Assembly (NCBI RefSeq): GCF_000709555.1 | Contig: NZ_CP006873.1 | Location: 30,001 to 62,000, forward strand | Direction of reading: 5' to 3' | DNA length: 32,000 nt | DNA from: Candidatus Saccharimonadota bacterium | GTDB taxonomy: Bacteria; Bacteroidota; Bacteroidia; Flavobacteriales; Blattabacteriaceae | Part shown: piece by piece, positions 1-31,922 of the stretch | How positions within the stretch are numbered: the first letter of the stretch is position 1 | Layout of the letters: each line of letters opens with the position of its first letter | Position numbers and translations under genes: made by a program | Notes under the pieces: model-generated | Database searches by the model: none | Seen by the model: the letters and a program-made list of their open reading frames with translations, nothing else | Told to the model about the DNA's origin: nothing

Positions 1-72
1 AAAAACATGTTTTCGTAATTCTTCAAGATGTTCCATAAATGGCATCTTTTCGTTAGAAGAAAAATATTCCAT
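1..72 (-). CDS. tatC: Probable Sec-independent translocase TatC, N-terminal fragment (gene continues left of window)
   Basis: Minus-strand translation from the ATG at 72-70 reads MEYFSSNEKMPFMEHLEELRKHVF. The M-x-F-x-x-HLEELR pattern is typical of a TatC N-terminus. An in-frame upstream ATG at 132-130 is an alternative start. Only 24 codons are visible. Confidence 0.4.
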   Translation of the reverse strand, partial: MEYFSSNEKMPFMEHLEELRKHVF

Positions 73-132
73 GAGACGGTCAGTTGGGAGAATTATTTCC
101 GGAGTGGGCTTTAGAACTGGATTAGGGTACAT

Positions 133-289
133 TAAATAAAAAAAAGACGGCGTTTGGAAGTCTTCAATACCTTCACCTACCTACTTTTTATAATCGACAA
201 AGGAATTTTGGATCTATAAATGGCTGTCTTAAGAGTAGCCTGCTACTAGGAGACCCCCGGATTGACATTCATTGACTTTTGTAACCCTC
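133..289 (-). pseudogene. ftsY: ftsY (SRP receptor) C-terminal remnant; most of the gene is deleted
   Basis: Minus-strand fragments read ..VTKVNECQSGGLLVAGYS* (264-229) and ..SFVDYKK*VGEGIEDFQ (to 154). They match the FtsY C-terminus LTKLDGTAKGG...IP-KYIGVGEGIEDLQ, but lie in different frames and carry in-frame stops. The position downstream of rpmB-rpmG-DUF4295 fits flavobacterial synteny. About 250 N-terminal codons are absent. Confidence 0.6.
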
Positions 290-448
290 TCATTTAGTGG
301 AAAAAAAATCATTTATTTTATTATCTGGAACTATTTTTTCTTCAAAAACATAAGTTCTTGATTTGATTGACTTTATCATACGTATAACTTTTGTCATTTT
401 TTTAGATCCATTATTTTGGAACCCCGGGGGTTTTTTTGTTTTTGCCAT
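290..448 (-). CDS. Small DUF4295-family protein (52 aa), typically encoded after rpmG in Bacteroidota
   Basis: The ORF is below the track threshold. It reads MAKTKKPPGFQNNGSKKMTKVIRMIKSIKSRTYVFEEKIVPDNKINDFFSTK*, which resembles the DUF4295 pattern MAKK...K-TKxIKMVKSxKSGxYxFxExI. It starts 1 bp after the rpmG stop. Confidence 0.7.
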   Translation of the reverse strand: MAKTKKPPGFQNNGSKKMTKVIRMIKSIKSRTYVFEEKIVPDNKINDFFSTK

Positions 449-449
449 T

Positions 450-632
450 TTATTTAATTTCTTTATGAATAGTGTATTTTCTTAGAATAGAGTTATATTT
501 TCTTAATTCTATTCTATTAGGCGTATTTTTTTTATTTTTGGTACTAAAATAACGAGATATCCCTTTTTTTCCACTTTTCTTATGTTCAGTACACTCCAGA
601 ATTATTTGTATTCTATTTCCTTTTTTTCCCAT
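450..632 (-). CDS. rpmG: 50S ribosomal protein L33
   Basis: 60 aa, [21 protein letters not shown]...[10 protein letters not shown]. Typical L33 sequence, adjacent to rpmB. Confidence 0.95.
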
Positions 633-640
633 TTTTGATT

Positions 641-877
641 TTATTTTATTAGTCTTTTTTTCCTCGAACGTTTCAGTGCCTCTTCAATTCCTATAGTATT
701 CACAGTTCTAATTCCAGCTGCAGAGATTTTTAACAAAATCCATCTATTTTCTTTAGGAAGAAAGAATCTTTTTTTTATCAGATTAATATTAAAACGACGT
801 TTAATTTTATTATTAGCATGAGAAACTTTGTTCCCTATTAGAACTTTTTTCCCGGTTATTTGACAAATTTTTGACAT
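641..877 (-). CDS. rpmB: 50S ribosomal protein L28
   Basis: 78 aa, [33 protein letters not shown]. Canonical L28 N-terminus. Confidence 0.95.
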
Positions 878-948
878 TTGAAAGAGGTTTTTTATTTCGG
901 ATTATTTAAATAACAGCTGCATAAGCTTTTTAATGAATAAATTCCATT

Positions 949-2568
949 ATGCAAGATCAAAAAATAGATTATTATTTACTTATAGGGACTATAATTTCAA
1001 TCTTAATAGTCTTTTTTTGTTTAAAAAAGCCTTTCAATGAAATTGGGTCGAAAAATATACAGTTATCAAATAATATTAATAAAACTATTTTATTCTCTCC
1101 CAAGAAATATGGGGAAACGATTTTAGAAAATGATCTTATTAGGGTAAAAATATCTAATCTTGGTGGGAATATTAGTGAGATCTTTCTAAAGAAGTATAAG
1201 ACTTATAACGATAAAATCTTACGTTTAGTAAAGACGAAAAGTTTCACTTTTGGTCTAAATCTTATAACTCTTTCGGGAAAAAAAGTTGATAGTAATGATT
1301 GGTTATTTACCCCTAATCTGCAAGAAACTCCCTATCAATACATCTTAACTATGAAAACAATTTTTCCTCCCGGAGGTGAATTAAATTATATTTATTCATT
1401 ACCGAAAGAAAAATCATATGAGGTAAATTTTTCCATTACTAGTCGAGGTCTTTGTTCTTTCGCAATAAATAATGCTATTTTTTTTAATTGTAAACAGAAA
1501 TTAATTGGGTTGGAAAAAAATTACAGTTATGAAAATAATTATGCACAAATGTGTTATTCTTATGGAAAGAATAAAAAAATAAAATCTTTAAGTGAAATAA
1601 GACCAGATCAAAATATAGTAAAAAAAATAAATTGGATAGCTAATAAACAACAATTTTTTACAACTATATTTTTTCCTAAAAATACTTTTCAAACAACGAA
1701 AATTCAATCAAAAAGACTTACATCACCATTTTATATTAAATGGGGTTCTATGTTTTCTCCATTAGAATTAGTTGATAATGAACTTAATTGGAAGGCAAAG
1801 TGGGATTTTGTTCCATTAAAGTATAATCTTCTTAAGAAGTATGGGGATAATTTTGAAGATATTATCCCATTTGGGTGGAGGATTTTTAGATCTATTAATA
1901 AAAACTTTTTTTTAAAACTTTTACAATTTTTAGAAAAAACAAAGTTGAATTATGGAGTAATTATTATATTAATGACTATTATAGTCAAACTTATATTATT
2001 CCCCATTACTTATTGGCAATGTAAATTCATTGCTATAATGAAAATGAGACGTTCTGATATAGAAGAACTGAATGAAAAACTGAAAGATGCAGATCCTTTC
2101 CAAAAGCAACAAGCTACTATAGAATTTTATAAACAAATAGGAATAAATCCAATGTCTGTATTTTTCCCAGCAATTTTCCAAATACCAATTTTTTATGCAC
2201 TGTTTAAATTTTTTCCAAATATTATTAATCTTCGAGGAAAATCATTTCTTTGGGCTTATGATTTAACTTATTACGATTCAGTATTTCATCTTCCTTTGAC
2301 TATACCGATTTATGGAAATCATGTTAGTTTATTTACTTTATTTTATATATTTGCGTTTATATTGTATACAAAGTTTAGTCATATAAATAATTACGGAAAT
2401 AATAATCGGCTTCTGAAATATTTCATGCCAATAATAATGCTTTTATTTATTAATAATTATGCTTCCGGACTTTCATTATATTATTTTATATCAAATATTT
2501 TGAATCTTATTATTCTGTTTCTAATTAAGAAAAAAAAAATAACAAAATATATATTGCGTAATAATTAG
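949..2568 (+). CDS. yidC: Membrane protein insertase YidC
   Basis: 539 aa with an N-terminal TM, a large periplasmic domain and a C-terminal multi-TM 60 kDa-IMP core (..PITYWQ...MKMRRSDIEELNEK...GINPMS..FPAIFQIPIFYALF). It has a short basic tail and an A10 run at 2530-2539 near the 3' end. Confidence 0.9.
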   Translation: MQDQKIDYYLLIGTIISILIVFFCLKKPFNEIGSKNIQLSNNINKTILFSPKKYGETILENDLIRVKISNLGGNISEIFLKKYKTYNDKILRLVKTKSFTFGLNLITLSGKKVDSNDWLFTPNLQETPYQYILTMKTIFPPGGELNYIYSLPKEKSYEVNFSITSRGLCSFAINNAIFFNCKQKLIGLEKNYSYENNYAQMCYSYGKNKKIKSLSEIRPDQNIVKKINWIANKQQFFTTIFFPKNTFQTTKIQSKRLTSPFYIKWGSMFSPLELVDNELNWKAKWDFVPLKYNLLKKYGDNFEDIIPFGWRIFRSINKNFFLKLLQFLEKTKLNYGVIIILMTIIVKLILFPITYWQCKFIAIMKMRRSDIEELNEKLKDADPFQKQQATIEFYKQIGINPMSVFFPAIFQIPIFYALFKFFPNIINLRGKSFLWAYDLTYYDSVFHLPLTIPIYGNHVSLFTLFYIFAFILYTKFSHINNYGNNNRLLKYFMPIIMLLFINNYASGLSLYYFISNILNLIILFLIKKKKITKYILRNN

Positions 2569-2593: not shown

Positions 2594-4528
2594 ATGAATC
2601 AAAACAATAAACCCAATAAACCCAATAAACCCAATAAACCCAATAAACCCAATAAACCCAATAAACCCAATAAACTTAATAACCCCAATAACCCCACAGA
2701 TTTGTTTTTTATATCATGTTTCCTGATTATTTTGGGAATATTTATTTTTCAATCTTTTGTCTTTAAAAGACAACAGATTTCTCAAGATTTTTTTTTTCAA
2801 ATCCTTTCTGAAAAAAGAGTTCATAAAATAATTATAACAAATCACTCTAAAGCCAGAATATGGGTTTATAAAACAAATATAAAAAATATAAAAAATCAAA
2901 AAGATCTTTTATATCCGTATTTTGATCATTATGAATTAACTATAAATAATTTTACTTTTTTTTCTCAAAAGATTGAAGAATATAAATATCTCTATAAATT
3001 AAATCTCATTCTTCTTTCAACGAATCAAAACGAATCTAATTTGAGCAAAACTGTCATTGAATCCGGATTATTTTTTTTCCTCTTTGTCATATTCTGGGGA
3101 TTCATATTATCTCGTCTAAACGGAGGTTATGGAAAACATATATTTAATATTGGAAAGTCTAAAGCTAAACTTTTTGACGAAACCGATAATGTTAAAATTA
3201 CTTTCCGAGACGTCGCTGGGTTGGAAGGAGCAAAGGAAGAAATCCAAGAAATTGTTGACTTTCTAAAAAATCCGAATAAATATACTAATTTAGGTGGGAA
3301 AATTCCTAAAGGTGCGCTATTAGTGGGACCTCCAGGAACTGGTAAAACTCTTTTAGCTAAAGCTGTTGCCGGAGAAGCTAAAGTCCCGTTCTTTTCTCTT
3401 TCGGGATCTGATTTCGTAGAAATGTTTGTTGGAGTAGGTGCTTCTCGCGTCAGAGATCTTTTTAACCAAGCTAAGGAAAAATCTCCTTCCATTATTTTTA
3501 TTGATGAAATCGATGCTATAGGACGTTCTAGGGTAACAAATAATATTAATGGAGCTAATGAAGAACGTGAAAATACCCTGAATCAGCTACTAACGGAAAT
3601 GGATGGTTTTGATACCAATACTAATGTTATAGTGATGTCAGCCACCAACCGTTCAGAGATTCTTGATCAGGCACTTTTACGTCCTGGACGTTTTGATAGG
3701 ACTATTTTTATAGATCTTCCAGAACTAAATGAAAGAAAAGAAATTTTTTTAGTACATATTCAAAAATTAAAAATTGCAGCAGATATAGATATTGAATTTT
3801 TATCTCGTCAAACTTCTGGGTTTAGTGGTGCTGATATAGCGAATATATGTAATGAATCTGCTATTATAGCAGCTAGGAAAAACAAATCAAAAATAGAATA
3901 TCAAGATTTTTTAAGTGCTATAGATAGAATTATTGGAGGATTTGAAAAGAAAAATAAAGTAATAAAGTTAGCAGAAAAAGAAAGAATAGCTTATCATGAA
4001 GCTGGGCATGCTGCTATTAGTTGGTTAATTGAACATGCGGCTCCTCTGGTAAAAGTTACTATTGTTCCTAGGGGAAAATCTTTAGGAGCCGCTTGGTATC
4101 TTCCAGAAGAACGTCAATTAACTACTTTTGAACAGATGCAAGATGAAATTTGTGCCATGTTAGGAGGACGGGCAGCTGAACAAGTAATATTGAAAACGAT
4201 TTCGACAGGTGCTTTAAACGATTTAGAACGTGTAACTAAACAAGCACAATCTATGGTAACAATTTTTGGATTAAATAAACGTATTGGGAATATTTCTTAT
4301 TATGACTCTACAGTTCAAACCGAATATGCAAAACCCTATAGTGAAAATACTGCCAGAATTATTGATGAAGAAATTTCTAAAATTATTGAAGAACAATATC
4401 AACGGGCATATAAATTATTAGCTAATAATCGTGTCAAACTTCAACAATTAGCTCAGAAATTACTTGAGAAAGAAGTGATCTTTAAAGAAGATCTTGAGGA
4501 AATTTTTGGAAACAGACCTTTTCCATAA
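2594..4528 (+). CDS. ftsH: ATP-dependent zinc metalloprotease FtsH
   Basis: 644 aa. It shows Walker [14 protein letters not shown], Walker [10 protein letters not shown], the SRH region and the zinc motif HEAGHA. The N-terminus carries an (NKP)n repeat. Confidence 0.97.
2606..2695 (+). repeat. In-frame tandem 9-bp repeat (AATAAACCC) x7 perfect plus 3 degenerate copies, encoding (NKP)7-NKL-NNP-NNP in the FtsH N-terminus
   Basis: Read directly: aataaaccc repeated from 2606 to 2668, then aataaactt aataacccc aataacccc. Confidence 0.95.
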
Positions 4529-4533
4529 AAAAT

Positions 4534-6423
4534 TTATTTAACTTCTTCAAAATCTACATCTTGAACATTTTCATTTTGACTCTTAGTATTAGATGCGTAA
4601 GTATTTTTTACGCTATTTTTTTTAGCAGTATACAATTCTTGTGAAATACTGGTCCAAATCTCGGTTAAAATTTTTGTCGTCCTGTCTATTTCAGAGAAAT
4701 TTTTTGAAGCACGAGCATTTTTCAGCTGTTGTAAAATCTCTTCGATTTTTTTCTTATTCTCTTTTGAGAATTTGTTTTCGGATTCTTTAATCTGTTTTTC
4801 AGTTTGAAAAATTAATCCATCCGTAGCATTTAACTTATCAATTTCTTCTTTATATTTTCTGTCTTTATCAGCATTTTCTTGGGCTTCTCGTTTCATTTTT
4901 TCAATTTCTTCTTGACTTAATCCTGAAGAAGCTTCAATCCGAATTGATTGTTCTCTATTAGTACCTTTATCTTTAGCTGAAACGTTTAAAATCCCATTGG
5001 CATCAATATCAAAAGTTACTTCGATTTGAGGTATTCCTCTAGGAGCTGGTGGTATATTAATTAAATCGAAACGGCCAATTTCTTTATTATCTTTGAAAAG
5101 AGATCGTTCACCTTGTCCTACTCGAATAGTTACAGCTGGTTGATTGTCAGAAGCCGTAGAAAATGTTTCTGATTTTTTTGTTGGGATAGTTGTATTAGAT
5201 TCTATTAATTTAGTAAATATTCCCCCTAAAGTTTCTATACCTAAAGAAAGTGGGGTAACATCCAGTAGAAGCACATCTTTAATATCTCCAACAAGAACTC
5301 CACCTTGAATAGCTGCGCCTATAGCTACAACTTCGTCAGGATTAACACCTTTTGAAGGTTTTTTTCCAAATAATTTTTCTACTGAAGCTTGAATTTTTGG
5401 AATTCGTGTAGAACCACCTACTAAAATGACTTCATCAATATCTTTAATTGCATCTAATCCAGCGGATTCTAATGCTTTTTTGCAAGGTTCCATTGAACGA
5501 CGAATAAGACCATCTGAAAGTTGTTCAAATTGAGCTCTAGTAATAGTTTGGACTAAATGTTTTGGTCCAGAAGAAGTAGCGGTAATATAAGGTAAATTAA
5601 TTTCAGTTTTTAGTCCTGAGGAAAGTTCTATTTTTGCTTTTTCAGCTGCTTCTTTTAAACGTTGATGAGCCATAGGATCTTGTCGAAGGTCAATACCTTC
5701 TTGAGATTGGAAACTCTTTACCAAGAAATTAATAATAATATCGTCAAAATCATCTCCTCCTAAATTGGTATCCCCATTTGTAGAAAGTACTTCAAATACG
5801 CCATCACCTAATTCTAGAATAGAAATATCGAAAGTACCTCCTCCTAAATCATATACTGCGATTTTTTTATCATGTTTCTTTTTATCTAAGCCGTAAGCTA
5901 ATGCTGCTGCAGTAGGTTCATTAATTATGCGTTCTACTTTCAATCCTGCAATTTCTCCAGATTCTTTAGTAGCTTGTCTTTGTGAATCATTAAAATATGC
6001 AGGGACCGTGATAACGGCACGAGTCACTTTCTGTCCAAGATAATCTTCAGCAGTTTTCTTCATTTTTTGTAAAATCATTGCTGAAATTTCTTGTGGAGTA
6101 TAAATTTTTTTATCTATATCGACTCTTGGAGTATTATTAGGACCTTGTATAACCTTATATGGCACCCGATTTATTTCAGTAGAAATCTCCGAAAATTTTG
6201 TTCCCATAAACCGTTTTATTGAAAAAATCGTTTTTTTAGAATTAGTAACAGCTTGTCTTTTAGCTGGATCTCCTATTTTTATTTCTCCTTCTTCAACAAA
6301 GGCTACCATAGATGGAGTAGTTCTTTTTCCTTCAGAATTAGGAATTACTATAGGATCATTACCTTCCATTACAGCAACACAGGAATTGGTTGTTCCTAAA
6401 TCGATACCAATAATTTTATTCAT
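4534..6423 (-). CDS. dnaK: Molecular chaperone DnaK (Hsp70)
   Basis: 629 aa, [21 protein letters not shown]...[12 protein letters not shown]...[14 protein letters not shown]. Full-length Hsp70. It is convergent with ftsH with only 5 bp between the stops. Confidence 0.98.
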
Positions 6424-8214: not shown

Positions 8215-9028
8215 AATAACTGCTAATCAAATAAAGAATCTTAGGAAAAAAACTGGTTCTGGAATAATGGATTGCAAAAAAGCGCTTATAGAATCTAAGG
8301 GAGATTTTCAAAAAGCTATTGAAATCTTACGAATAAATGGAAAACAAATTGCTCTGAGTCTTTCTCATCGCGAGACTAATGAAGGAGTTCTTATTGCAAA
8401 AGTAAATAGAGAAGAAACACAAGGAGTAATTATCGGATTAAGTTGTGAAACTGATTTCGTAGCCCAAAATAGTGATTTTATTCAATTAGCTAATAAATTT
8501 GCAGAAATAGCGATTTCATGTATAAATAAAGATGATTTATTAAATAAATTTATAGGTAATCTTCCGATTAAGGAAAAACTTATAGAACAAACTGGGGTAA
8601 TAGGAGAAAAAATTGATTTATGTTTTTTTGAAAAACTGTCAGCTTCTTTTGTATCTTTTTATGTTCATAATGGTAATAAAATAGCTAGTTTAGTAGGATT
8701 ATCATCTGCCCCTAAAGGCGTTCAAGAAGTAGCTAAAAATTTAGCTATGCAAGTAGCAGCTATGAATCCCATAGCTTTAAATAAAAAAAAGTTATCTCCT
8801 GAGATCCTTCATAAAGAAAAAGAAATTGCAAAAGAACAATCAAGAAAAGAAGGAAAACCTGAAAATATGATAGAAAAAATTTCTCAAGGAAAATTAAATA
8901 AATTTTTGGCTGAAAATTTACTTCTGGACCAAAAATTTATAAAAAATAATAAATTATCTGTAATAGAATATGTAAAAAAATTTAATTCTAATATTCAAAT
9001 TACTGATTATAAAAGATTATCTTTTTAA
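8207..9028 (+). CDS. tsf: Translation elongation factor Ts
   Basis: 273 aa, ..IKNLRKKTGSGIMDCKKALIES.GDFQKAIEILR.. (UBA-like N-terminus), plus an EF-Ts dimerisation core. Overlaps rpsB by 8 nt. Confidence 0.93.
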   Translation: MYRITANQIKNLRKKTGSGIMDCKKALIESKGDFQKAIEILRINGKQIALSLSHRETNEGVLIAKVNREETQGVIIGLSCETDFVAQNSDFIQLANKFAEIAISCINKDDLLNKFIGNLPIKEKLIEQTGVIGEKIDLCFFEKLSASFVSFYVHNGNKIASLVGLSSAPKGVQEVAKNLAMQVAAMNPIALNKKKLSPEILHKEKEIAKEQSRKEGKPENMIEKISQGKLNKFLAENLLLDQKFIKNNKLSVIEYVKKFNSNIQITDYKRLSF

Positions 9029-9097
9029 GGTGGTAAAATCTTATTTTGTCCTTATAACGGGATCCTGTAAAAGCTCTAATCCTTACTCTTCCTCCTA

Positions 9098-9670
9098 ATG
9101 TTGTCCCATGAACTCTCTCTAATTAAAGAAAGTGCTCAATTGGTTTCCAAAACATTAGGAATGTTAACTTCAGAAATCCAACCAGAGGAATTTATTCGGG
9201 ATCATGGCGGTATTCCAGCTTTTCTAGGACTTTATAATTTTCCCAATACATTATGCTCCAAATGAACAAATAGTTCATGGGATTCCCAATAAAAAACCTT
9301 TATCTGAAGGAGATATTGTGTCTATAGATTGTGGGGTCCTAATGAATGGATATTATGGGTATCATGCTTATACTTTTGCAGTAGGTGAAATATCTGAAGA
9401 CCGAAAAAAACTCATAGAGGTTACTAAAAATTCTCTATCCCGTGGGATATATTCTTGTCGAATAGGGAATAGGACAGGAGAAATTGGATATGCCGAAAAA
9501 ATCTACATGATCTGGGAAAAAATTATTAGAAGGAATGGTCCTAGCTATTGAACCTCAGATAATTAAAAAAGATGTACCGCAGATAATAAGCCTTCAGTTC
9601 ATTTTGAACATAATGTAGCCTAAATGGAAACCCAATTTTACTTTCTACATATAAATTTATATATCAAACG
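9098..9670 (+). pseudogene. map: Methionine aminopeptidase (type I) pseudogene with multiple frameshifts and internal deletions
   Basis: Frame a (9098-9259) reads MLSHELSLIKESAQLVSKTLGMLTSEIQPEEFIRDHGGIPAFLGLYNFPNTLCSK*. Frame b reads PNEQIVHGIPNKKPLSEGDIVSIDCGVLMNGYYGYHAYTFAVGEISEDRKKLIEVTK..GEIGYA, followed by a collapsed middle. Later frames read LEGMVLAIEPQII, ADNKPSVHFEHNVA* and NGNPILLSTYKFIYQ. All are MAP motifs but they sit in at least 4 frames. The track ORF 9318..9551 is one fragment. Confidence 0.85.
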
Positions 9671-9788
9671 CTTAATATTCATTCTGATGAAGAGGAACCT
9701 TTTATTATTAAGGACTATTAAACGGATTCTGCTCTAACTCTAGAATCAGTATCAATTATGAATTGATTTTTAAAATAAAAAAAATATT

Positions 9789-10184
9789 ATGCCAACAATC
9801 CAACAGTTAATAAGAAAGAAAAGAGAAATTTTTAAGAAAAAAAGCAAATCTCCGGCTTTAAATTCTTGTCCTCAACGGAGAGGAGTCTGTATACGAGTTT
9901 ATACTACTACTCCTAAAAAACCTAATTCGGCAATGCGGAAAGTGGCTAGAGTCCGTTTAACTAATGGAAAAGAGGTTAATGCCTATATTCCTGGCGAGGG
10001 TCATAATTTACAAGAACACTCTATCGTTTTAGTTCGTGGTGGAAGAGTTAAAGATTTGCCTGGTGTACGTTATCATATATTACGAGGTGCTATAGATACT
10101 GCTGGAGTCAAAGATAGAAAACAAGCACGTAGTAAATATGGAACTAAATCTGACAAAAATGAATTGAATCTTAAAAAGAAATAA
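9789..10184 (+). CDS. rpsL: 30S ribosomal protein S12
   Basis: 131 aa, [12 protein letters not shown]...[52 protein letters not shown]. Confidence 0.98.
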
Positions 10185-10187
10185 AAG

Positions 10188-10664
10188 ATGAAAAAAGGAA
10201 ACCTGAAAAAAAGATCTTTATTACCTGATCCAAAATTTAACGACCCTTTAGTTAGTCGTTTTGTTAATAATTTAATGAAAAATGGGAAGAAAAATCTCGC
10301 ATATAATATATTTTATGGTGCGATGAAAATTGTAAAAGAACGGAATGAAAATAAAGATAAAAATGAGCTCGAAATTTGGAAACAAGCACTGACCAATATT
10401 ATGCCTCATGTAGAAGTTAGGAGTAGGAGAGTAGGAGGATCTACTTTTCAGATTCCGAGACAAATTAGTCCATATAGAAAAATATCAATAGCTATGAAAT
10501 GGCTTATCTGTTACTCACGAAAAAGAAATGAAAAAAGTATGTCTGATAATCTTGCAGCAGAAATTATTGCCGCATCTAAGGAAGAAGGATTAGCCGTAAA
10601 GAAACGTATTGATACTCATAAAATGGCCGAATCTAATAAAGCTTTCTCACATTTTAGGTTCTAA
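10188..10664 (+). CDS. rpsG: 30S ribosomal protein S7
   Basis: 158 aa, ..[28 protein letters not shown]...[16 protein letters not shown]... Confidence 0.96.
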
Positions 10665-12766
10665 TGAAAGATCTTAAATTTACTAGGAATATAGGTATAG
10701 CAGCACATATAGACGCGGGAAAAACTACTACGACAGAACGTATACTTTTTTATACTGGGATCAACCATAAAATAGGTGAAGTCCATGATGGGGCTTCTAC
10801 TATGGATTGGATGGCTCAAGAACAAGAGAGAGGTATTACTATTACTTCAGCTGCTACGAGATGTGAATGGAAATATTGTAATAATAAATATGATATAAAT
10901 CTTATAGATACACCAGGTCACGTGGATTTTACCGTAGAAGTAGAACGTTCCTTAAGAGTCTTAGATGGAATGGTTACTATTTTTAGTGCGGTAGATGGAG
11001 TAGAACCACAATCAGAAACTGTATGGCGTCAAGCAGAAAAATATAAAGTACCAAGAATAGGTTTCGTCAATAAGATGGATAGACGAGGTGCAGATTTTTT
11101 CAATGTTTGTTCTCAGGTAAAAAAAATATTAGGTGGGAATCCTTTGCCTCTGCAAGTTCCTATAGGTAGCGAAGAAAGTTTTAAAGGTGTTGTGGATCTG
11201 ATTTCTAATAAAGCTATAATCTGGAGTGAAGATGATTATGGGATGACTTATAAAAATATCCCTATTCCCAACAATCTTGAAAAAATAGTAGCTGACTATC
11301 GTGGAAAACTTATTGAAGCTATCGCGGAATACGATGATATTTTGATGGACAAATTTTTTGAAAATCCTAATTCGATTTCAGAAAATGAGTTGATTGAAGA
11401 TTTGAGAAAAGCTACTATTCAAATGAAGATTGTTCCTATGCTTTGTGGATCATCATTTAAAAATAAAGGGGTCCAGTCTATTTTAGATGCTGTTTGTCAA
11501 TATCTTCCATCTCCTTTAGATGTGGAACATATTATAGGAAATAATCTTAAAACAAAATCACCAGAAAAAATAATCCCATCTGATAATGAACCATTTACAG
11601 CTTTAGCTTTTAAAATTTCTACTGATCCTTTTGTAGGGAAGTTAGCTTTTTTTCGGGTCTATTCTGGAAAGCTTGATGCAGGTTCTTATGTTTTAAATAC
11701 TCGTTCCAATAATAGAGAACGTATTTCTCGTCTATATCAAATGCATGCTAATAAACAAAACCCGATTAATAGTATTAAATCAGGAGATATTGGAGCTGCT
11801 GTCGGATTTAAAGATATAAAAACTGGAGATACTCTTTGTGATGAGAATAGGCCGATCCTTTTGGAAAGTATATCTTTTCCTGATCCAGTAATCGGGTTTT
11901 CCATAGAACCTAAATATAAAAATGATATTGATAAAATGAGTTTTGCTCTTTCCAGACTAGTTGAAGAAGATCCGACTCTTCAAGTTAGGATAGATAATTC
12001 CAGTGGACAAACGATTTTATCAGGAATGGGAGAGCTTCATTTAGAAATCATTATTGATAGGATGAAAAGGGAATTTCAAGTAGAAGTCAATCAAGGAAAA
12101 CCTCAAGTCGAGTACAAAGAATCATTTACTACAGAATATCAACATAGAGAGGTTTATAAAAAACAAACTGGAGGGAGGGGGAAATTTGCTGATATTATAT
12201 TTAAAATTGGTCCTACTAATAAGAATTCGTTCGAATTTGTTAATTCTGTAAAAGGAGGAAATATTCCTAAGGAGTTTATTCCATCTATAGAAAAAGGTTT
12301 TAAAGAAGCTATGAAAACAGGTCCTTTAGCAGGTTATGAAATAGATGCGATGAAAATAACTTTAATAGATGGAACGTATCATACTGTTGATTCTGATCAA
12401 TTATCATTTGAACTAGCAGCTAAGATAGGTTTTAAAGAAGCTGCAAAAAAAGCAAATCCAGTTCTATTAGAACCTATTATGAAAATTGAAATAGTTACTT
12501 CAGAAGAAAATCTGGGAAATATAGTAAGTGATTTAAACCGACGTCGTGGTATTTTGCAAGGTGTAGATGATCGGAACAATTCTAAAATAATTAGAGCACA
12601 GGTTCCTTTAACTGAAATGTTTGGATATGTAACTACTTTACGAACACTTTCATCAGGAAGAGCTACTTCTTCAATGGAATTTTCTCATTACGAATCTGCT
12701 CCTAAAAACGTTGCTGAATCTATTATTTTTAGGGTAAAAGGAGATCCTCATAAAAATGAATCATAA
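10664..12766 (+). CDS. fusA: Translation elongation factor G
   Basis: 700 aa, ..[25 protein letters not shown]...[18 protein letters not shown]...DTPGHVDFT. Its ATG overlaps the rpsG stop (TAATG). Confidence 0.98.
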
Positions 12767-31135: not shown

Positions 31136-31922
31136 ATGTTTGATATCCCGTCAAGGAAGTATTGAGTAAGATTTCAGAACCCATAAAAGAATTACGTCGT
31201 GTTTTACTTAATGCTGATGTGAATTTGAAAGTAGCTAAAAAAGTTCTAATAAAGATTGTACACAGTGAACTCGTAGAACTTCTGGGTCTACCAGGTAAAA
31301 CAACTTTTTCCGTCAAATTAGCTTCTTACTTGTCCAGTAAAGAACGGAAAAATCCTTTATTAGTATCTGTTGATATTTCACGACCTGCAGCAATAGAACA
31401 ACTTAAAAAATCATATGCGAGAGTTAAGTGTAATGATGTATTAATAATAGATCACGCAGGACGTATAGATGAAGCTCTGATGAATGAAATCAAATATCTT
31501 TATCAAGAAAGATGTCGAGACTCTTTTTGTAGACAGGACAAGATTCAGTGAATCCCGCACCACGATATTTTAAATTATGAAGGCGGACAAACTAGATGGA
31601 GCACTAACTATTCGAAGTGTTGGACCCATTAAATTCATAAGCACTGGTGAAAATATGAGTATTACGAGTTTCTGCAACAACTAAAAAAAATACCAGGATG
31701 AAAGAATTTTCCTTTAAAATCATTGAGGCTATTATCTATTCTCTGACTCCTAAAGAACGGAAACATCCTAATATTATCAATCGAAAAAACCGAATCGCTA
31801 GTGAGTCTGTAACCTCTGAAGAAAAATTTCTACTTAAGCAATTAGAACATATGAGAAAATTAATAAATCCTTCGATAAAAAATATAATCACTACTATTTT
31901 TTCTGTAATATCTGATCTATGA
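31136..31922 (+). pseudogene. ffh: Signal recognition particle protein Ffh (SRP54) pseudogene, frameshifted and heavily deleted
   Basis: The ATG at 31136 gives MFDIPSRKY* (the Ffh N-terminus is MFDNLS). Later fragments are in other frames: IKELRRVLLNADVNLKVAKK (N domain); GLPGKTTFSVKLASYL...PLLVSVDISRPAAIEQL (the P-loop GLQGSGKTT shortened by 2 residues); VLIIDHAGRIDEALMNEIK (DTAGR changed to DHAGR); DKLDGALTIRSVGPIKFISTGENM (DARGG is lost from TKLDGDARGGAALS..PIKFxGxGE); and IIEAIIYSLTPKERKHPNIIN.KNRIASESV (M domain). The whole is about 790 bp versus about 1.3 kb intact. Track ORFs 31162..31551 and 31698..31922 are fragments of it. Confidence 0.88.

Follow-up and report, generated by a model that had tools for sequence, protein, structure and literature searches.

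Evidence for an eroded ftsY relic at its ancestral position in the scale insect symbiont 'Candidatus Walczuchella monophlebidarum'

The DNA analyzed here (the window) is a stretch of 32,000 nucleotides (nt) from strain LLAX of 'Candidatus Walczuchella monophlebidarum'. This flavobacterium, which lives in symbiosis with a giant scale insect, has a genome of 309,299 bp (PMC3971599). The window has a G+C content of ~30% and is densely packed with genes. Close to its start, the minus strand carries rpmB (positions 877 to 641; Pfam L28), rpmG (632 to 450; Pfam L33), and a gene for a 52-aa DUF4295 protein (448 to 290; PF14128, E = 2.9e-13), followed by ~158 noncoding bases (289 to 132) and then by tatC. 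The DUF4295 gene is the upstream neighbor that marks the ancestral slot of ftsY, the gene for the signal recognition particle (SRP) receptor. Its stop codon is TGA (292 to 290), and the noncoding stretch starts directly after it, as an earlier note on this DNA had reported when describing the stretch as a C-terminal ftsY stub. The 5' end of tatC (1 to 81, minus strand; beginning MEYFSSNEKMPFMEHLEELRKHVF) was recognized by translation and continues past the window edge; its identity was established through homologous open reading frame (ORF) fragments in two loci of related genomes (i.e., L012 and L013), which match PF00902 (TatC). The spacer between the stretch and tatC (82 to 131) is fairly conserved across strains, and a promoter and terminator scan of window positions 1 to 960 found neither on the minus strand within the stretch.

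Elsewhere in the window, map (methionine aminopeptidase; 9104 to 9718, plus strand) is a pseudogene; compared with an intact 277-aa gene in a sister locus (L004, 1919 to 2752), it has frameshifts and has lost two internal segments. The 5' end of ftsH (2605 to 2696, plus strand) contains a 9-bp tandem repeat (CAATAAACC; 10.2 copies) that encodes (NKP)n, and the FtsH ORFs called in the sister loci are of unequal lengths (493 to 621 aa).

In Blattabacterium, the gene order is rpmB-rpmG-DUF4295-ftsY, with a 320-aa ftsY that overlaps the DUF4295 stop codon; the same order, with a 316-aa ftsY, is present on a 1.55-Mb contig of a Flavobacteriales genome. Since an intact ftsY follows DUF4295 in both genomes, the LLAX stretch fills the ancestral ftsY slot, on the correct strand. 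Its size is ~158 nt (~52 codons), versus ~950 nt for the intact ftsY of these relatives.

The other side of rpmB differs among these bacteria. In Walczuchella, yidC (window 878 to 948 side) adjoins rpmB; in Blattabacterium and the Geopemphigus symbiont (three YidC-anchored loci, L001 to L003; ~8380 to 10000), pyrG precedes yidC, with lplA and rsfS separating yidC from ftsH and with cdsA and psd separating ftsH from dnaK. All four of these genes are absent from the corresponding places in Walczuchella, which, together with the yidC-rpmB adjacency, points to a rearrangement plus deletions in Walczuchella. The YidC-anchored loci are uninformative for ftsY, because yidC follows pyrG and not rpmB there. 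A DUF4295-like match (56% identity over 36 residues) was also seen at positions 10001 to 10108 of a contig labeled as a Solirubrobacteraceae metagenome-assembled genome (L008); since DUF4295 was otherwise found here only in Bacteroidota genomes, this match may be a binning contaminant.

The longest ORFs overlapping the stretch encode 26 to 27 aa, compared with the ~300 aa or more of an intact ORF for a functional FtsY. In the minus-strand frame phased on base 300, the translation reads ERVTKVNECQSGGLLVAGYS, a stop, DSHL, a stop, IQNSFVDYKK, a stop, and VGEGIEDFQTPSFFYLM, after which the frame runs without a stop into MEYFSSNEKMPFMEHLEELRKHVF at the start of tatC. The three in-frame stops are TAA (231 to 229), TAG (216 to 214), and TAG (183 to 181). 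The two motifs on which the earlier note was built (i.e., VTKVNECQSGG at 285 to 253 and VGEGIEDFQ at 180 to 154) had been assigned to two frames; both lie in this single frame, broken by the three stops. The frame is also open from an ATG at 135 to 133 into tatC (window 82 to 135, minus strand), so that a TatC as annotated might begin with 18 additional residues derived from the former ftsY-tatC spacer. The coding sequence of this extension is not conserved in the sister genomes.

Searches with the translated stretch (stops as X) against Pfam, NCBIfam, and PDB returned no match even at permissive E-values, and it stays below the FtsY family threshold. When the FtsY proteins of Blattabacterium and the Flavobacteriales relative were compared with the whole window by tblastn, only noise was obtained (HSPs in the stretch, E ~28). 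Profiles were built from 120 flavobacterial FtsY proteins, and an hmmsearch of the full-length six-frame translations with the 120-sequence profile matched only the paralogous ffh pseudogene described below. The search for an SRP54-type domain suggested in the earlier note is thus negative for the stretch; it is the locus alignment with Blattabacterium and the Flavobacteriales genome, proposed at the same time, that shows the ftsY slot. None of the GTPase motifs G1 (GxxGxGKT), G3 (DTAGR), and G4 (TKxD) is recognizable in the LLAX stretch, and the C-terminal FtsY motif GxGE..DL..F is represented by VGEGIEDFQ at 180 to 154.

A C-terminal version of the profile (i.e., its last 61 columns) gave 5.0 bits in the frame that contains VGEGIEDFQ, the best of the six frames, and this score was equaled by 12 of 3,000 dinucleotide shuffles. 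When 212 real 300-nt window tiles were ranked on this profile, the tile with the stretch came approximately third to fourth, and the paralogous ffh pseudogene came first. With the full-length profile, the observed score was matched by 46 of 2,000 shuffles. Part of these modest scores stems from the VTK..GG segment, which we conclude to be misaligned (see below). On the basis of the profile scores, the FtsY similarity of the LLAX stretch taken alone appears only marginally beyond chance.

At 90% identity, the L28, L33, DUF4295, ArgS, and ValS proteins encoded in the window belong to clusters whose named members are from Walczuchella genomes, and the L28 cluster led to the orthologous region in eight other Walczuchella assemblies (CRMU [CP170566], ICPU [OZ034981], DRPI [CP170567], ICSE [CP170563], three Logan contigs, and one ENA contig). 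All eight sister loci show rpmB-rpmG-DUF4295, then 160 to 1,200 nt with no called gene or with tatC fragments only, and then smpB. Several FtsY-like motifs are preserved in these intervals. Directly after DUF4295, the segment KRFIAGKTKV resembles the FtsY N-domain segment KTFIGKSKV. A P-loop relic (VNGVGKIVLLGKIFKQ in L004 and VNGVVKIVLLVAG in the DRPI-type loci) resembles the FtsY P-loop VNGVGKTTTIGKLA, and VNGVGKIVLLGK of L004 matches FtsY profile positions 122 to 136 (the P-loop region; VNGVGK). GGA(S/Y)DTFRAAAV in CRMU, ICPU, and L009 resembles FtsY GAGDTFRAAAVDQ, the CRMU and ICPU motif corresponding to profile positions 148 to 160. A K.D..KGG relic (KTDPRVFKGGMI) in CRMU and ICPU resembles FtsY TKLDGTAKGGVVI. 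Finally, LGEGIEDLQIFYKDAFISSF with its stop codon in CRMU and ICPU corresponds to the FtsY C terminus (profile positions 294 to 314; 7.6 bits); this block is truncated or altered in L009 and ICSE. A relic of DTAGR (G3) was not seen in the ftsY locus of any strain.

The motif relics of the sisters are colinear with FtsY, since profile positions 21 to 41, 122 to 136, 148 to 160, and 294 to 314 follow one another in DNA order. In the two best sister relics (CRMU and ICPU), none of 2,000 shuffles equaled the observed FtsY profile scores, and the two-frame score sum was 13.8 bits, versus -9.4 +/- 4.6 for the null. These loci have also diverged in ways specific to each lineage. In ICSE (L015, ~5650 to 6150), tandem repeats have grown inside the ftsY relic, with 10-bp units (GCAGCCGTAA) seeded on the RAAAV codons and 16-bp units (CATAAATACTGCCGTA); in L004 (~10640 to 10900), a 15-bp array (AATAAATCCGACCCG) within the relic is broken by an assembly gap of Ns. 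The lineage-specific indels, together with the repeat expansions of ICSE and L004, are those of a pseudogene that is free of purifying selection.

Global DNA alignments connect the LLAX stretch with these relics, with matches at 240 of 272 aligned bases for CRMU and at 184 of 212 for DRPI. The strongest link is a 27-nt block at 181 to 155 (TAGGTGAAGGTATTGAAGACTTCCAAA), which shares 96% identity with CRMU and ICPU (pairwise blastn E ~4e-9) and encodes VGEGIEDFQ (154 to 180, minus strand) in LLAX and LGEGIEDLQ in the two sisters, where it is part of the C-terminal block ending at the stop; the equivalent segments are VGEKMEDLQ in Weeksellaceae and IGEKIQDLK in Blattabacterium. The earlier identification of VGEGIEDFQ as a true FtsY C-terminal motif is borne out by this block. 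The comparison with FtsY C termini is therefore marginal for the stretch itself and significant by way of the sister relics. Downstream, a degraded tail (TPSFFYLM; 132 to 153) aligns with the end of the CRMU and ICPU block (..TCCTCTTTTTAATG, SSF plus stop), and indels have since put the ancestral ftsY stop codon TAA (134 to 132) out of frame.

Four further islands lie upstream, all on the minus strand. The block IQNSFVDYKK with its stop (181 to 213) is common to the DRPI lineage (VQNSFVDSKK plus stop; 33 nt, 97% identical to DRPI), and LLAX AAAGTAGG in this block aligns with CRMU AAAGGAGG (KGG). The block may descend from the TKxD..KGG (G4) region of ftsY, an origin that these short alignments leave uncertain. 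At 214 to 237 lies a frameshifted relic of GA.DTFRAAAV, in which GCTACTCTTAAGACAGCC (~239 to 222) gives ATLKTA in a neighboring frame and aligns with CRMU GATACTTTTCGTGCAGCA (DTFRAA) in another; the island columns read GATACTTTTCGTGCAGCAGCC (DTFRAAA) in CRMU and CGTGCAGCTGCC in DRPI, and it is the sister motif that corresponds to profile positions 148 to 160. GGLLVAG (238 to 258) represents the segment just after the P-loop: LLAX GGTCTCCTAGTAGCAGGC (~255 to 238) is ~94% identical over a 16-nt blastn match (E = 0.002) to DRPI ..GTTCTCCTCGTAGCAGGC after VNGVVK. The P-loop codons themselves, kept as VNGV(G/V)K in L004 and DRPI, are deleted in LLAX. Lastly, ERVTKVNECQS (259 to 289), directly after the DUF4295 stop, is conserved across all sister loci and continues in CRMU and ICPU as ..VTKNYIIKRFIAGKTKV, like FtsY LEKTNKSFFEKLTKTFIGKSKV (profile positions 21 to 41; E ~2 to 4, weak alone); ERVTK probably goes back to helix 1 of the FtsY N domain (L.KT..), to judge from these short alignments. 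The assignments of the N-helix scrap, the 181 to 213 block, and the frameshifted DTFRAA relic are tentative ones, drawn from short alignments and weak profile scores, and the ftsY ancestry of the LLAX stretch is secure only through its DNA homology to sister relics that are significantly FtsY-like.

The P-loop codons were removed by a ~35-bp deletion private to LLAX, and the GG of TK.....GG lies at its junction. Because TK.....GG is located 5' of the P-loop and DTFRAA relics, it cannot be the G4 motif TKLDGTAKGG, and its reading as a motif of the FtsY C-terminal region is withdrawn. A colinear hidden Markov model alignment that equated VTK..GG with TKLDGTAKGG was rejected on the sister-genome alignment. 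The anatomy is accordingly not the clean C-terminal stub first proposed; the sister alignments reveal a mosaic of islands produced by many internal deletions. Its pieces are distributed over different frames, and stops, frameshifts, and large deletions have abolished its coding capacity. No usable N or GTPase domain is left, in agreement with the earlier note; however, these regions are not wholly missing, since small islands from along the whole gene persist. Different ftsY islands are kept in the LLAX, DRPI-type, and CRMU-type loci. LLAX has its C-terminal block in common with the CRMU/ICPU/ICSE type and its 213 to 181 block in common with the DRPI type.

The SRP pathway has suffered a second hit in the same window. 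An intact ffh is ~1,340 nt long. In LLAX, 31 kb away from the ftsY slot, ffh (31140 to 31922, plus strand) is independently a pseudogene of ~780 nt, in which Pfam recognizes pieces of SRP54_N, SRP54, and SRP_SPB that are spread over three frames and interrupted by internal deletions. No intact ORF is left to reach the TIGR00959 equivalog cut-off (473 bits), the fragments scoring 73 and 32 bits; G1 has a damaged sequence, GLPGKTTF, and G3 has changed to DHAGR. The ffh of DRPI is split into fragments of 217 aa and 76 aa, with both G1 (SGQTT) and G3 (DHAVR) damaged, and that of CRMU is nearly erased. No SRP RNA gene was found inside the 32,000-nt window. Together, the ftsY relic and the ffh pseudogene indicate that SRP-dependent cotranslational targeting is gone.

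The translocases and insertases are in a different state. The secY (436 aa) and yidC (539 aa) genes of LLAX give full-length Pfam matches, and the LLAX genome paper describes secA, secE, and tatABC as present or complete and lists Sec, Tat, and YidC with no SRP components (PMC3971599). Both yidC and tatC appear whole in LLAX and are fragmented in every sister locus examined (L004 and L009 to L015); the fragments lie at ~3400 to 4950 in these 10-kb loci and at 5755 to 6515 in L012 to L014. In CRMU, secY is fused with infA (528-aa product). The argS gene of CRMU (L016, 8692 to 8904) is down to a 70-aa DALR fragment.

On the basis of translation, synteny, sister DNA alignments, profile scores, and shuffles, window positions 289 to 132 (minus strand) very probably represent a nonfunctional relic of ftsY at its ancestral position downstream of rpmB-rpmG-DUF4295, which upholds the central claim of the earlier note. 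The stretch might instead be an ordinary intergenic spacer, its FtsY-like peptides being chance matches in AT-rich DNA. The empty Pfam, NCBIfam, and PDB searches and the blind tblastn result (E ~28) would fit such a spacer, as would an unrelated window tile (28051/28201) that scores slightly above the stretch on the C-terminal profile. However, position and strand are exactly those that synteny predicts, the DNA is homologous to sister relics with three or four ordered FtsY motifs (CRMU/ICPU, 0 of 2,000 shuffles), and the VGEGIEDFQ block extends in the sisters to a 21-residue FtsY C terminus that ends at a stop. We therefore consider a chance origin largely refuted and highly improbable. An equally faint prospect is that a functional ftsY persists elsewhere, relocated or duplicated, with the stretch as a leftover of an intact SRP pathway. 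The LLAX sequence examined is the window, and ~277 kb of the chromosome lies outside it; nonetheless, ffh, the obligate partner of FtsY, has decayed to a pseudogene both in LLAX and in two of the sisters. To our knowledge, genomes of ~300 kb essentially never carry duplicated genes. Given the dead ffh and a published description that lists Sec, Tat, and YidC and names no SRP genes (PMC3971599), we infer that LLAX has no second ftsY.

It is also unlikely, if somewhat less so, that the relic has been co-opted (e.g., to serve tatC as a promoter or 5' leader, or to extend TatC at its N terminus). The relic frame is stop-free from 180 to the tatC start, and the conservation of the 82 to 131 spacer among strains would suit such a role. 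Against this, there is no sigma-70-like site on the minus strand between 82 and 289, the sisters carry stops and frameshifts in this region while their tatC is itself fragmented, and the relic is no more conserved than the flanking genes. A decayed, nonfunctional ftsY thus remains our preferred reading. Under this reading, ftsY function was probably lost before the sampled Walczuchella lineages diverged, and the deletional bias of endosymbiont genomes would then have removed most of the ~950 nt through many small and medium deletions. The surviving islands would be the N-helix scrap, the post-P-loop scrap, the frameshifted DTFRAA scrap, the 181 to 213 block, whose origin is uncertain, and the C-terminal VGEGIEDFQ..SFF including the former stop codon; which islands were lost later would have differed from lineage to lineage. 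The LLAX relic would now encode nothing and would serve only as a spacer between DUF4295 and tatC.

Identical large portions of ftsY are missing from all sampled lineages, and the simplest interpretation is therefore that SRP targeting disappeared early, probably in the ancestor of Walczuchella, and that the insertases are decaying later, at lineage-specific rates. Membrane-protein targeting would now be SRP independent or largely dispensable. A broader proposal can be put forward only tentatively, with the balance tilted somewhat against it: that LLAX is a natural bacterium without SRP, having lost both Ffh and FtsY, probably in the clade ancestor, while keeping full-length SecY and YidC (reportedly also SecA, SecE, and TatABC) and membrane respiratory complexes, with inner-membrane insertion that is SRP independent or aided by host-supplied factors. 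The sisters, in which yidC and tatC decay, would then show the later steps of an ordered series (i.e., receptor and SRP first, insertases later).

The relic is a case of ordinary gene decay in a shrinking genome, and eroded secretion genes are already on record in the literature on this clade. According to a 2025 comparison, seven Walczuchella genomes are fully syntenic, and most of 11 COG-U (trafficking/secretion) genes have been lost or pseudogenized (PMC12188211). The 2014 genome paper defined pseudogenes by a length threshold of <50% of the ortholog (PMC3971599); the ftsY relic is far below this size and may be unannotated. Neither ftsY nor ffh is named in the main text of the 2014 paper (PMC3971599) or of the 2025 paper (PMC12188211), both terms are absent from the 2014 supplements, and a literature search on this scale found no paper that names their loss in Walczuchella. 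New here, at most, are the specific ftsY relic and its mosaic anatomy.

The relic illustrates the fate of ftsY as a colinear skeleton of short motif islands, of which different ones survive from lineage to lineage, and the ftsY and ffh loci document that both SRP components are gone across Walczuchella. The suggested order of decay, with ftsY most eroded, followed by ffh, with yidC and tatC whole in LLAX and fragmented in sisters, and with secY retained, bears on the reach of SRP-independent membrane-protein insertion in nature. The locus also warns against relying on motifs spotted in relics: TK..GG proved to be a spurious match, and ancestry was settled only by sister-genome alignment.

Compared with FtsY itself (TIGR00064; PF02881 SRP54_N plus PF00448 SRP54) in Blattabacterium and the Flavobacteriales relative, the LLAX relic occupies the same strand and genomic position and resembles the protein in its C-terminal VGEGIEDFQ..SFF and, by way of the sisters, in the N-helix, post-P-loop, and DTFRAAA scraps. 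It differs in having ~52 codons instead of 316 to 320, three stops, frameshifts, no G1, G3, or recognizable G4, and no family-model score. The pseudogene-rich Walczuchella genomes described previously (PMC3971599 and PMC12188211) belong to the same clade and reflect the same deletional process, with lineage-specific erosion across syntenic genomes. Beyond the clade, the relic has parallels in other SRP-less bacteria. Bacteria that live without SRP include those with the smallest symbiont genomes (e.g., Carsonella, Hodgkinia, and Tremblaya) and Uzinura, and SRP mutants of Streptococcus mutans are viable. Uzinura is listed without Sec and Tat (PMC3971599). LLAX is like the SRP-less bacteria in that Ffh and FtsY function was lost in a highly reduced intracellular bacterium. 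Unlike the SRP-less minimal symbionts, LLAX has retained secY and yidC at full length, and reportedly also secA, secE, and tatABC; with its translocases kept and SRP lost, it looks like an intermediate stage, in which targeting was lost before the translocases.
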